Below are positions 3,077 through 28,786 of a DNA stretch of 64,000 nucleotides, piece by piece. How positions within the stretch are numbered: position 1 is the first letter of the stretch; every line of letters starts with the position of its first letter. The DNA comes from Patescibacteria group bacterium (GTDB lineage: Bacteria; Patescibacteriota; Minisyncoccia; UBA6257; Colwellbacteraceae): assembly GCA_023380475.1 (NCBI GenBank), contig JAMCRD010000006.1:2546-66545 (forward strand), read 5' to 3'. The notes beneath the pieces were generated by a model. The model was not told where the DNA came from. It saw only the letters and a list, made by a program, of their open reading frames with translations, and searched no databases. A program made the position numbers and the translations under genes.

Positions 3077-4306
3077 TTACTCTGTCTGCAAATTATTGCT
3101 ACTAAACTTTTTCTCGAAGACCATCAACACAACCACAGCCACGAAGGCTGCTGCTGCCCCTAGATAGAAGGGCGCCGACGGCCCGACCCGATCCCACAAT
3201 AGTCCCGCCAGGAAGCTAGCGACAAGAGCCGCAACACCAGAAGTCATGCCATATATGCCGAACGCTCTGCCGCGATAGTCTGCGCTGACCATGTCAGCCA
3301 ACAGGGCCTTTGCCACACCCACATCGATTGCATAATAGATGCCATACAAACCGTAGAGCAGCCAGATCATATAGGCTTGTGAAGCAAGAGCGAATCCGAG
3401 ATACACCAATCCGTACACAACCCAGCCTATAATGATGGTGGGGATACGTCCTATCTTGTCGGAAAGCGATCCTACGGGGACGGCAAACAGGGCATATATA
3501 AAATTGAATAGAGCTATGACCAGTGGGATGGCAAGCAATGTAATACCAAGATTCCTAGCACGGAGGATGAGAAATGCGTCAGATGAACTACCAAGGGTGA
3601 AAATAATGACTATTGCCATAAACAGATAGAATGACTGAGGGAGAGCCGATCTACCTTTCGCCGTTACGATCCGCTGCGGAGCTGGCTGGTTGTGGCCGAT
3701 TTCTCTGACCTTCGTCACCAGAATCAGCAAGGTGAAGAAAAGCGGGACAGCGGTAAATATAAGGATATAGCGATACAACTGTGCGCTGCCGCTAAGGAGA
3801 TACAATAGGCCGAATAATATGAGCGGCCCGGCGACCGATCCGAATGTGTCGAGCATACGCACTATGCCGAAACTCTTGCCCCGTGTCTCTTTTTCAGATG
3901 AACCAGCGATAAGAACGTCTTTAGGTGGGTCTTTTATGCCCTTACCGGCGCCGTCCAAGAACCGCAGACCAAAAATCGAGGCGCTGGAGGTGAAAAACGC
4001 AAGGAGCGGACGGCTTACCATCGAAAAGAGGTAGCCGATGAATATTATTGGCTTGCGTCTTTTAAACTTATCAGATAAGAGTCCGGATATAACGCTGAAT
4101 ATGTAACTGCCGGCGTCAACCAAGCCTTCGGCGATACCGACAAACGTCTTATCAAAACCAAGGACGGTGGTGTAGTAAATCGGGATGATCGGCGTGAAGA
4201 TGTCCTGGCTTATCCCACCGAACAGGCTAAGCAAGCCGATGAAGAAAGGGTTTTTGTTTTTAGGCTTGGAGCTGGGATTCGCCTGCGCTGCAGGCTGGTT
4301 CTCCAT
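3077..4306 (-). CDS. MFS transporter
   Basis: About 12 TM helices; motif A GLLSDKFKRRK and GSLSDKIGR. Confidence 0.9.
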   Translation of the reverse strand: MENQPAAQANPSSKPKNKNPFFIGLLSLFGGISQDIFTPIIPIYYTTVLGFDKTFVGIAEGLVDAGSYIFSVISGLLSDKFKRRKPIIFIGYLFSMVSRPLLAFFTSSASIFGLRFLDGAGKGIKDPPKDVLIAGSSEKETRGKSFGIVRMLDTFGSVAGPLILFGLLYLLSGSAQLYRYILIFTAVPLFFTLLILVTKVREIGHNQPAPQRIVTAKGRSALPQSFYLFMAIVIIFTLGSSSDAFLILRARNLGITLLAIPLVIALFNFIYALFAVPVGSLSDKIGRIPTIIIGWVVYGLVYLGFALASQAYMIWLLYGLYGIYYAIDVGVAKALLADMVSADYRGRAFGIYGMTSGVAALVASFLAGLLWDRVGPSAPFYLGAAAAFVAVVVLMVFEKKFSSNNLQTE

Positions 4307-26130: not shown

Positions 26131-27687
26131 TTATAGACTTGTAAAGTTCAACGGACTGCCCCCGTAGTTCAATGGATAGAACAGATCCGTCCTAAGGATA
26201 AAATAGGAGTTCGATTCTCTTCGGGGGCACCAAGTGAGAAATTGCAAATCCCCAGAAGTCGCCGCAGACGGCTGGGCGGCCAGTTCGTATTGTAATTTCG
26301 GGGCAAACGAGAATTCGCGGTTTCGCAAAATATGGTTCGAGCCGATGTTTTTGAGAAATGTTGTCATTGCAATTCCGTTATTCTCTTGAAGCAGTTTTGA
26401 GGCCTGATTGAGTGATAGAACGAACTCTCTCGCTGGTTCGAGCCACGACAGCCCTTTGTCCGCGAAATCGGATATTTTCTCCTGCAATCCGATTTTCCGA
26501 GAAAGCAGCTGTTCCTTCTTCGCGGCGTATTCGGTCTGGAACAGGGCGTCGGCAAGATAGGCATCGAGGAGTTTGGACAGCTTCGCCTCCACGCGGGCAA
26601 CTTCGTTTTTCAGAGTATCAATCTGCGCTCGCGCCTCCTCCCTTGCCTTGTCCCGTTCCGCCTCTAAGAGAGCTAACGCTTTCTCGGTATCATCGTCCGA
26701 CAAAGAAATTTTTTGCAGGAACGATTGTATATGCTCCGTCACTATCTCCTCGCGGAGATAGTGCTTTTCTTGGCACACGCCGCCTTTCTTTGTGCAACGA
26801 TAATAAGCATGGCCTTTCTGCATTTCGGCGGTGATGGAGCTTCCGCACGAGGCGCATTTCATAAGGCCGAGAAAAGCGAAATCATGCCGCTTCGTCTCAA
26901 TCGTCTTGCCGCGCTTTGCGCGCACCTCTTGGCAGAGGTCAAAAAGTTTCTTCGGGACAAGAGGTTCGTGGCGTCCCTCGTACAGTTCTCCGCGATACCG
27001 CATAAGGCCGTAATAGAAGGGGTTGGTTAAAATCTTCTGGATATTGCTAAGCGCAATCTCCTTGCCGAGGTTGCCTTTCAATCCTTGCTCTCGGCACCAA
27101 TCTACGAGGTCATGGAGCGTATAGCTTCCTATGGCGTAAAGCGCGAACAGCTTGCGGACAAGCGGGGCTTTCACGGGGTCAACATCAATCCCTCGCGTCC
27201 TCGGGTTGTTCAAGTAGCCAATCGGTGCCCAGCTCGGCCATACGCCGTTCCGTATCTTCTGCCGCAAGCCACGCTTTACGTTCTCCCGCAGGTTGTCCAC
27301 GAAGTATTTTGACTGCCCGAAGGCAATGTTGAGCATAAAGAGGCCTTGTGGTGTCGGCTCAAACCAGAACGTAGGGAACTTGAGGGACTTAATCAGGCCT
27401 CGGTCAATCATGTGGATGACCCGCCCGCCGTCCACGGAATTGCGGGCGAGGCGATCTGGGTGCCACGAGAGGATGCCCTGTGCCTTGCCGCGTTCCACGA
27501 ATGACAACATTTCAGCGAACTTAATACGGCCGGGTTCTTTGGCGGTCTTTGCCTCCTCAAAGGAAGCGACAATTTCAAGTTTTTCTTTGGCGGCAAATTC
27601 CCGAAGCTCCACCAGTTGAGCTTCTATGGACAGCACCTGCCCGTCGTCTTCTTCCGTTGATTTGCGAGCGTAGATTATGTATTTCAT
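26131..27687 (-). CDS. Large serine recombinase (integrase); its last ~32 codons run antisense through the tRNA
   Basis: YARKS catalytic motif, DRLARN, recombinase domain, zinc ribbon CASCG...YYRC...C, coiled coil. Confidence 0.95.
   Translation of the reverse strand: MKYIIYARKSTEEDDGQVLSIEAQLVELREFAAKEKLEIVASFEEAKTAKEPGRIKFAEMLSFVERGKAQGILSWHPDRLARNSVDGGRVIHMIDRGLIKSLKFPTFWFEPTPQGLFMLNIAFGQSKYFVDNLRENVKRGLRQKIRNGVWPSWAPIGYLNNPRTRGIDVDPVKAPLVRKLFALYAIGSYTLHDLVDWCREQGLKGNLGKEIALSNIQKILTNPFYYGLMRYRGELYEGRHEPLVPKKLFDLCQEVRAKRGKTIETKRHDFAFLGLMKCASCGSSITAEMQKGHAYYRCTKKGGVCQEKHYLREEIVTEHIQSFLQKISLSDDDTEKALALLEAERDKAREEARAQIDTLKNEVARVEAKLSKLLDAYLADALFQTEYAAKKEQLLSRKIGLQEKISDFADKGLSWLEPAREFVLSLNQASKLLQENNGIAMTTFLKNIGSNHILRNREFSFAPKLQYELAAQPSAATSGDLQFLTWCPRRESNSYFILRTDLFYPLNYGGSPLNFTSL
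26158..26232 (+). tRNA. tRNA-Arg(CCT), integration target
   Basis: GCCCCCG/CGGGGGC acceptor stem, GTCCTAA anticodon loop, AGTTCGATTC T-loop, CCA at 26230-26232. Confidence 0.92.
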
Positions 27688-27713
27688 CGTGTTAAAAATT
27701 TTCTTTTCCCAGT

Positions 27714-27812
27714 CGAAACCGCGAATTCTCGTTTGCCCCGAAATTACAATACGAACTGGCCGCCCAGCCGTCTGCGGCGACTTCTGGGGATTTGCAATTT
27801 CTCACTTGGTGC
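27714..27812. repeat. 99 bp inverted copy of 26227-26325
   Basis: Base-by-base reverse-complement match, no mismatch seen. Confidence 0.95.
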
Positions 27813-27897
27813 AGGACAATTGAGATAGCTCGAACGGTTTTTGACACCCCCACCGAGGCTAAATCTGAAACGCCCGACGTGGCGGAGCCGCACCGAT
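27809..27897. repeat. 89 bp inverted copy of 28659-28747
   Basis: Reverse-complement match with one mismatch (GACGTGG vs GACGCGG). Confidence 0.95.
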
Positions 27898-27966
27898 AAA
27901 GACCGCCAAAGAACCCGTTCCTAACATCGGCTCGAACCATATTTTGTGGGAAAAGAAAATTTTTAA
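27898..27966. repeat. Three short inverted fragments of the recombinase locus
   Basis: 27898-27917 = rc of 27531-27550; 27923-27946 = rc of 26326-26349; 27947-27966 = rc of 27692-27711. Confidence 0.9.
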
Positions 27967-27970
27967 TCAT

Positions 27971-28141
27971 ATGAAAAAAGCATTATTAATTATTTGTGAG
28001 TTTATAGCGACGGTAGTTATTTTCTTATTGATTTATAAATTTTTTAATTTATCAACAGCTTTACCAATATGGATTGTAATCGTCATCATTTTGATAAAAA
28101 CGACAATTAGCCACGACGGTAAAGACAAAGACGGGGCATAG
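27971..28141 (+). CDS. Small 2-TM cargo protein (56 aa)
   Basis: ATG at 27971 after the duplicated leader; AT-rich; two hydrophobic helices. Confidence 0.65.
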   Translation: MKKALLIICEFIATVVIFLLIYKFFNLSTALPIWIVIVIILIKTTISHDGKDKDGA

Positions 28142-28203
28142 GATTTTGAATATTGGTCAATCTGTTCCGCACCAATAAAGACACAAAGAAATAATTTTTA
28201 ACC

Positions 28204-28626
28204 ATGAAAAGATTAAAAAGTTTACTAGTGGTTTGGCTAGAAATTTTGGTCGGCGGCCTGATTTTAATTTTTGTGCCAGACATCAGATGGTTTCTGTTTT
28301 ATCTTTTAGTGATTGTTCTTATGACTTCGGTTATGCGAGCGGATTATCTGCGAAAGGTCGTCAGGGTGTTCCAAGTGGAGAATGGGGTTAATCTCGCTAG
28401 CATAGCCAAGAAACTCAACATATCGGAAGCAGAGATTCAGAAGTCCAGAGATGACCTTAGCGACAGCTTGCTGGACGACCAAAGAAAATCTTTGCATAAG
28501 GATATGGAAGAGCTTGGAATTTCCAGCCCCGAACGCTTTTACAGAAATCCAGTGGACGGCCTATCAGATACCGAAAGGGGTAAGAAATTCATGGATAAAG
28601 TTTTTAAGGACTTCGGGGATAACTAA
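28204..28626 (+). CDS. Hypothetical cargo membrane protein
   Basis: 140 aa, two N-terminal TMs, charged C-terminal domain. Confidence 0.75.
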   Translation: MKRLKSLLVVWLEILVGGLILIFVPDIRWFLFYLLVIVLMTSVMRADYLRKVVRVFQVENGVNLASIAKKLNISEAEIQKSRDDLSDSLLDDQRKSLHKDMEELGISSPERFYRNPVDGLSDTERGKKFMDKVFKDFGDN

Positions 28627-28658
28627 AATTTGCCGCCAAAGAAAAACTTGAAATTGTC
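28627..28658. repeat. 32 bp inverted copy of 27568-27599 (recombinase 5' coding region)
   Basis: AATTTGCCGCCAAAGAAAAACTTGAAATTGTC exact match. Confidence 0.9.
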
Positions 28659-28786
28659 ATCGGTGCGGCTCCGCCGCGTCGGGCGTTTCAGATTTAGCCT
28701 CGGTGGGGGTGTCAAAAACCGTTCGAGCTATCTCAATTGTCCTGCACTACTAATAATCTGCTAATTGAGCATATTATTAGTAGACC

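Follow-up and report, generated by a model that had tools for sequence, protein, structure and literature searches.

A tRNA-targeting serine recombinase element of Patescibacteria that retains an inverted internal attP and may pass through a folded single strand

Large serine integrase elements, among them those of LI/A118, Bxb1, phiC31 and SPbeta SprA, encode enzymes with resolvase, recombinase and zinc-ribbon domains, recombine at a 2-nt crossover and, once integrated, end in hybrid attL and attR sites. Serine integrase sites need about 50 bp. The zinc-ribbon motifs sit 5 bp further from the core in the attachment site of the element (attP) than in that of the host (attB) (PMC3783163). We analyzed a 64,000-nt stretch from a Patescibacteria group bacterium (contig JAMCRD010000006.1, positions 2,546 to 66,545), called the window below, in which an element of about 2.5 kb sits at the 3' end of a tRNA gene. 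It belongs, in integrated form, to a large family of elements of 2.3-3.3 kb that carry one cargo and that a large serine recombinase inserts at tRNA 3' ends, and it shares the enzyme domains, the hybrid ends, the 2-nt crossover and the 5-bp rule with the systems above. Unlike them, it keeps a second complete attP inside, its repeats measure 180-200 bp as compared with sites of about 50 bp, the recognition motif occurs in one arm only, attP lies within a gene, no directionality factor gene is evident, and pairing is conserved through the whole element. Our confidence is somewhat better than even that the element has a folded single-stranded DNA stage, during which the joined ends are paired with, and templated by, the internal copy.

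Four other systems are alike in part. The yeast 2-micron plasmid with FLP/FRT is a circle in which two long inverted repeats hold the recombination site and are kept identical, both isomers being equal. The present family resembles it in the long identical inverted repeats, but here one isomer is seen and there are no replication genes. The SSV-family 'suicidal' integrases of archaea use tRNA targets. Their site also lies within the integrase gene, which is split on insertion (PMC7253208), but they are tyrosine recombinases, the portion of that paper available reports no internal spare attP, and here only the last ~30 residues are swapped. Integron cassettes (attC) are likewise mobile single genes with a folded single-strand site and a fixed orientation to the promoter (PMC5027507). 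They depend on the tyrosine integrase IntI and form arrays of promoterless cassettes at attI, whereas each unit here has its own serine recombinase, putative promoter, leader and one cargo, inserts at tRNA ends and lacks attC. In CTXphi, two inverted attP copies pair in the single strand to form the site, one strand exchange is resolved by replication, and both copies stay in the integrated form (PMC3089051, PMC4246890). CTXphi, one of the integrative mobile elements exploiting Xer (IMEX), differs in using the host tyrosine recombinases XerC/D and a dif target, in being a phage with its own rolling-circle gene, and in having copies that are imperfect and inert as double-stranded DNA. Here the copies are exact, the internal one looks competent, the serine recombinase is element-encoded with its gene forming part of the putative fold, and the targets are tRNA genes. 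By analogy, the family would work most like CTXphi without being a member of that group. No description of this element family, and no serine recombinase with a folded single-strand substrate, was found in the literature searched, in which subscription journals were thinly covered. The main text of PMC10083194 does not contain 'tRNA'; its supplementary tables may list members.

The target in the window is a tRNA-Arg(cct) gene at 26158-26232 (plus strand; ARAGORN, Rfam and the sequence itself), whose last bases, the CCA end, are supplied by the left arm of the element. We refer to the left arm of the island as F and the right arm as A, with 1 for the end copy and 2 for the internal copy. Self-comparison of the window places F1, the attL side of attP, at 26227-26325 (core 26227-26230) and its inverted copy F2 at 27714-27812, 99 nt with 100% identity. 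A1, the attR side, lies at 28659-28747 (core 28744-28747) and A2 at 27809-27897, 89 nt with 99% identity and a single mismatch (27880/28676). The two middle arms share a 4-nt core (27809-27812) and thus form a 184-bp internal block, 27714-27897. These values match exactly the two long inverted repeats fused at a shared core that the original prediction had described. That description was incomplete, since four further inverted pairs link pieces of the recombinase gene to both flanks of the cargo: W (27568-27599/28627-28658, 32 nt, 100%), X (26326-26349/27923-27946, 24 nt, 100%), Y (27531-27550/27898-27917, 20 nt, 100%) and Z (27682-27711/27947-27976, 30 nt, 87%). X1 adjoins F1, Y1 and W1 lie within the gene, and Z1 covers the integrase leader and gene start. 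On the other side, Y2, X2 and Z2 form one block (27898-27976) that copies three distant gene pieces, and W2 adjoins A1. Two more pairs are internal to the gene, at 26355-26368/27500-27513 (V, 14 nt, closing the main coding domain) and at 26399-26413/27387-27401.

The recombinase gene occupies 26131-27687 on the minus strand and encodes 518 aa as integrated. F1 supplies codons ~455-487, and the last 31 residues come from the antisense strand of the tRNA gene. Domains PF00239, PF07508 and PF13408 were all found above their cut-offs, together with weak PDB matches to the A118 and SPbeta enzymes. Its translation contains the Ser10 motif and four cysteines, and a coiled coil can be read from it as a prediction.

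Scans with the recombinase protein found at least 551 relatives in genomes and at least 594 in metagenomes, of which 80 from each source were analyzed further. Names of the candidate phyla radiation (CPR) appear in the record titles of 65 of the 80 genome records. Including the window there were 161 loci; 11 duplicates were removed, and 67 loci were informative, meaning that their sequence covered no less than 1700 nt upstream and extended 60 nt or more beyond the F arm of the gene. Among these 67 unique loci the F pair was present in 64, both long pairs in 59 and all six pairs in 51. Full elements measure 2302-3306 bp (n = 63). Their targets cover 25 anticodon types and 13 amino acids, with enzymes that are 60-96% alike. 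The cargo is nearly always different (60 clusters among 63 elements), and no conserved second gene or directionality factor gene is evident among the genes of the elements, though such a factor may act in trans. The arrangement is, by this comparison, the plan of the family rather than a chimera, since it recurs in 59 of 67 independent relatives; a look at homologous loci had been proposed as a check. For the same reason, the expectation that an integrated element retains no attP fails in this family, the internal site being kept in those 59 loci.

Of 80 loci, 46 could be anchored, and in these the ends were compared with the middle copy. Identity between the left end and the internal copy begins no later than core position 0 in 44 of the 46 and no later than position 2 in all 46; for the right end, identity extends at least to position 1 in 44. 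The crossover dinucleotide is the first two core bases, where the left and right ends overlap in their match to the internal copy. A single top-strand crossover bond directly accounts for 44 of the 46 loci, and the remaining two have a mismatch at a more distal point of the arm. The dinucleotide is the symmetric GC in 59 of 81 cases. The ends are thus hybrid attL and attR sites with a 2-nt crossover, in keeping with what had been predicted for a serine-recombinase element.

Three features mark the middle copy as an attachment site. The tRNA targets contain, in their T loop, a GTTCR motif at a distance of 18 nt from the core (87 of 89); among matches to the motif in the A arm the distance is 23 nt in 75 of 82, a difference that equals the 5-bp attB/attP shift (PMC3783163). 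The motif is present in one arm only, and the host side past the core is unconserved; we predict it to be the recognition motif of the zinc ribbon. Read from F to A across the core, -35-like and -10-like boxes stand 17 nt apart in a fixed register, facing the cargo. They match at least 8 of 12 positions in 57 of 61 elements and at least 9 of 12 in 23 of 61. The putative boxes of the window copy (plus strand, 27792-27820; -35 at 27792-27797, -10 at 27815-27820) match 8 of 12, and a generic promoter scan of the window left them below its threshold and unlisted. Finally, the integrase frame read across attP enters a conserved helix, W-C-x-I-L-x-x-V-R-T-H-F (59 of the 63 anchored), whereas the tRNA-derived integrase tails share nothing among relatives. 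In the window this tail is encoded opposite A1 once the ends join. Given the 5-bp outward shift of the motif relative to the tRNA target, the promoter-like boxes and the conserved integrase end, the middle copy is, as judged from sequence features, a true and intact attP. Both the intact inverted attP and the splitting of the integrase on integration had been proposed for this locus, and both hold, the conserved 3' tail being encoded only across attP.

The long arms change quickly but in step. An element's own two copies resemble each other more than those of its nearest relative in 60 of 63 elements (median 98.9% vs 85.3%). Arm length varies from 65 to 130 nt, with insertions common to both copies. 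When changes were counted on a tree of the 63 elements, two-sided changes outnumbered one-sided ones by 650 to 114 in F and by 141 to 46 in A, for which 37 core-proximal columns were used. F1 accumulates 8.3, 7.5 and 9.2 substitutions per site at the three codon positions and so shows no coding periodicity. This fast but in-step change, with the shared insertions, argues that the long arms are kept alike by copying. Two further observations concern the arms. Near the core, short blocks of the F arms vary modularly among close relatives, and such blocks differ between the two copies of one element in seven loci (L039, L055, L070, L098, L115, L123 and L137). Across the 63 elements, the main A-arm hairpin bears its loop in either orientation (GCA/TGC, GAA/TTC, ACA/TGT), which suggests that the loop has been inverted repeatedly.

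The short pairs behave differently from relics. On the same tree the two-sided and one-sided changes numbered 15 and 73 for W, 22 and 52 for X, 30 and 37 for Y, 21 and 73 for Z, and 7 and 49 for V, and co-change exceeded all 100 partner shuffles for W, X, Y and V. Synonymous variability was strongly suppressed in W1 (0.13) and lowered in V1/X1 (0.22-0.28), compared with a mean of 0.69. Inside 113 integrase genes, seven helices of 9-16 bp were conserved, as against 0.6 in a codon-permuted null (maximum 3 in 60). As a control, 30 EF-Tu genes of similar divergence contained 0 conserved helices, while three subsamples of 30 integrases contained 7-9. Helices also abut one another within -6 to +3 nt: F1-X1 in 59 of 63 elements, Y2-A2 in 55 of 62, A1-W2 in 50 of 63, Z2-X2 in 49 of 59 and F2-Z1 in 45 of 59, which gives three-way junctions F-X-Z and A-W-Y. 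The slow compensatory change in the short pairs, the suppressed synonymous variation and the conserved inner helices show, in the terms of such comparisons, that the family is under selection to fold as one strand. Folding energy was set aside as support. Two integrase genes gave z of about -5 to -6 on both strands, but a host control gene gave -4.8 and -2.6 (10 shuffles each), so that the measure did not discriminate.

As to which strand folds, no excess of wobble pairs was found on either strand after composition correction (152 observed vs 160 expected; 112 vs 127). A raw strand bias of 53 vs 24 in local alignments was discarded, as it was gone after alignment, tree counting and composition correction. 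The triloop hairpins of the A arm are GNA or its complement in 68 of 76 cases, compared with 23 of 93 in host flanks, counts that are non-independent in these related sequences. Mini-hairpins of this kind are more stable as DNA and are found at single-strand origins (PMC13037366). The absent wobble excess and the GNA triloops lean towards DNA rather than RNA, and we infer that the folding molecule is DNA.

The favoured pathway would run as follows. When the ends are joined, the end attP copy would pair with the internal inverted copy to give a duplex attP of 180-200 bp, and X+Z and W+Y would make three-way junctions exactly at both ends of that duplex; the geometry is that of the sequences, and the folding is what we propose. 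The internal copy would be the pairing partner and probably the template by which the joined ends are filled in or corrected in each cycle, which would explain why both copies are identical although they change fast. The duplex attP would rebuild the promoter and the last integrase helix, so that full-length enzyme would come only from the free form, and in the chromosome the internal attP would drive the cargo. Insertion could be a single-strand exchange resolved by replication as in CTXphi, or could follow conversion to double-stranded DNA via the end copy; the data do not separate the two routes. The one insertion polarity and the single crossover bond that fits most loci count in favor of this pathway. 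More tentatively, at somewhat less than even confidence, the family may form a new class of mobile elements whose large serine recombinase uses a strand folded on itself as its substrate; such elements would carry a captured gene and insert at tRNA ends in one polarity. In such a class the short helices would hold the strand ends at the borders of the internal attP template, and host polymerase and ligase would rebuild the duplex attP, the promoter and the last enzyme helix.

Several points weigh against passage through a folded single strand. Four of the five smaller inner-gene helices are without excess co-change, and, as helices were chosen for conserved pairing, their low rates are partly circular. 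The copying of the arms is imperfect, or chimeras occur, as identity falls below 95% in 18 of 96 pairs for F and 14 of 84 for A, several of which differ by whole blocks. Neither the wobble counts nor the triloops name the strand. The pairs form three mutually crossing sets (A/F, X/Y, W/Z), and with all of them made at once the fold would be knotted or threaded; the sets may instead form one after another. Serine recombinases cleave both strands before rotation. By this chemistry, a folded circle that underwent exchange of all four strands would be left with two hairpin ends, unlike the layout seen, so that either one strand would be exchanged or the strand would first be made double. The unitigs of four runs gave no sign of a free or single-stranded form, and the core motif had 0 matches in viral contigs. 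The viral contigs contained only three related loci, two cut at contig edges and one 26% alike, and the matches in 126 plasmid records were all below 60% identity. The element has no enzyme for making single strands, and ComEC, DprA and reverse transcriptase had no match in its own genome, which is 98% complete. Competence is reported to be common in Patescibacteria (PMC12455944).

Another possible explanation is that the fold is RNA, which we regard as unlikely but deserving of weight. The joined ends would make the promoter, and a long transcript would run backwards over the cargo into the integrase gene. Pairing of Z, X, Y and W would then control translation or stability of the integrase message, and the arms would be homogenized by gene conversion in a double-stranded circle. 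The fixed register of the promoter-like boxes (at least 8 of 12 in 57 of 61) fits this, as does Z1 covering the integrase leader, and any transcript through the element would hold both partners of every pair. There is also a precedent in lambda sib, an RNA structure across attP. Against it are the missing G-U excess on either strand and the GNA-type triloops of the A arm, and the exact abutment of helices at both arm ends exceeds what translational control would need.

Rather improbable, in our estimation, is ordinary double-stranded excision and integration, with the internal attP serving as cargo promoter and occasional second landing site, and with the short repeats left as relics of an old inverted gene duplication. 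Homogenization would here be due to gene conversion or attP x attP recombination. The register of the boxes suits this account, and so do the loci in which a tRNA (3/119) or a foreign arm (at least 1/119) is joined to the internal F copy, as well as the intramolecular attP x attP activity reported for the LI/A118 integrase (PMC3783163). Relics would decay, however, yet the short pairs show compensatory change and suppressed synonymous variation. A promoter needs ~40 bp rather than 184, and attP x attP inversion would leave flipped isomers, of which none was seen (0/119).

The original prediction had proposed a possible two-state switch: a double-stranded circle bearing two equivalent attP sites could integrate by either one, and inversion could occur between the members of each repeat pair. 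The signature of the switch, the element's own A arm following the F arm of the gene, marks either the second isomer or a free circle. Past the 3' F arm, 96 of 119 unique loci run into a tRNA gene, 23 into other sequence and 0 into their own A arm. Among 119 loci with 300 nt upstream, 105 have the standard order F-A-Y/X/Z and 0 a flipped cargo; in three others the internal F copy adjoins a tRNA, and the remaining 11 loci are incomplete or decayed. Both orientations, as expected among relatives of a DNA inversion switch, were therefore not found (0/119 and 0/119), and neither the second isomer nor the flipped cargo finds support. Reads had been suggested as a further check. In unitigs from three runs of one study, one of which may be the source, the joint between gene start and arm is carried, with more than 31 nt on each side in one record, the arm/Y joint is carried by two records, and one record extends across the internal core but reaches just 26 nt beyond it; none spans the whole element. 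The internal joints were thus seen, whereas no alternative junction was listed: the unitigs of four runs contained no circle, empty-site or inversion joint, although short reads cannot show a circle joint, which is almost identical in sequence to the internal copy. In two other genomes of the genus an empty tRNA-Arg site was not identified, the matches being short tRNA matches.

Several rearranged loci bear on the same question. In L139 and L142 the integrase module is joined to a tRNA on one side and to the arm of a sister element on the other, and in L080 to a tRNA and a tRNA piece. Together with L087, they suggest that the internal attP can recombine now and then, and for L139, L142 and L080 the likeliest reading is that the internal attP was, as a rare event, used on a second target. 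The reciprocal cargo-only product was sought in the genomes of L080 and L087 and was not found. In the flanks of both loci, tRNA-Ala genes are bordered by partial copies of tRNAs and by short inverted repeats. The arm of a sister element, rather than a tRNA, is also the target in 9 of 104 anchored cases (L017, L050, L104, L112, L130, L139, L148, L163 and L168), and the sister element of L139 has its own 123-nt inverted repeat around its cargo.

The switch still has points in its favor. The internal site bears all the marks of attP, the crossover is mostly symmetric (GC in 59 of 81), three loci show tRNA-F-integrase in the opposite polarity, and the second isomer, with a full-length integrase beside a tRNA promoter, might be purged, so that selection against it could hide it. 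The zero counts therefore lower the probability of the switch rather than remove it. On the other side, besides the two counts of 0/119 and the lack of such a joint in the unitigs, the loci of opposite polarity terminate at a contig end, in a second piece of tRNA or in a foreign arm, and a switch would leave the four short pairs, the within-gene helices and the 180-200 bp identity unexplained. We consider it very improbable. An assembly or amplification chimera, for which the short-read assembly and the lack of a record across the whole element could speak, can practically be dismissed, given the same layout in 59 of 67 independent loci of different sequence and the differences between the copies at 27880/28676 and in Z.

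The rest of the element and its surroundings can be described briefly. The cargo consists of two A+T-rich open reading frames (ORFs) of no known family, both on the plus strand. The first (27971-28141; 56 aa) is hydrophobic, has its start codon within Z2 and gave no Pfam match; the second (28204-28626; 140 aa) has N-terminal hydrophobic segments and gave no family above cut-off and no usable atlas match. The Rfam scan returned tRNAs, one sub-threshold match and nothing else of note. A 16-bp A+T-rich hairpin (28747-28783) immediately adjoins the right end, ahead of tRNA-Arg(tct) and tRNA-Pro; in an unoccupied site the hairpin would come after the target tRNA.

Derived and distant relatives were also observed. 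L006 (G000:C2:18159-19211) is a decayed relative without integrase, with a tRNA-Arg(tcg), an F-like start of ~28 nt and a 282-aa cargo ORF, continuing into W and the start of the A arm, 92% like that of the window element. L173 and L175/L177 (G002:C28) are integrase-less derivatives that keep F, X/Y and part of A beside a tRNA gene or tRNA-like end. L116, L096, L053 and L059 have additional cargo units, with their own A, W or Z/X/Y pieces, beside the element in an array-like manner. A distant serine recombinase (37% identity; G000:C1:127-209 and 3477-3559) has an 83-nt, 96% inverted copy of its own 3' end ~2 kb upstream, past a helix-turn-helix-like gene and a 517-aa gene, and the element plan may extend to this sister subfamily. 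A third serine recombinase (38%; G000:C5:89196-93704) lies at tRNA-Tyr with ORFs that resemble helix-turn-helix, methyltransferase and nuclease genes in sequence; up to the contig end it has no long inverted copy.

The vehicles of gene transfer in the reduced genomes of Patescibacteria are poorly known, and PMC12455944, in the portion available, names no recombinase or integrase. The family described here is very common in Patescibacteria and nearly every member carries a different gene, so that it may count among the main routes by which these bacteria exchange single genes. If passage through a folded single strand is true, serine recombinases would join the tyrosine recombinases in single-strand recombination, and the integrase of the family, which would read a short motif universal to tRNAs, might accept single-stranded donors.

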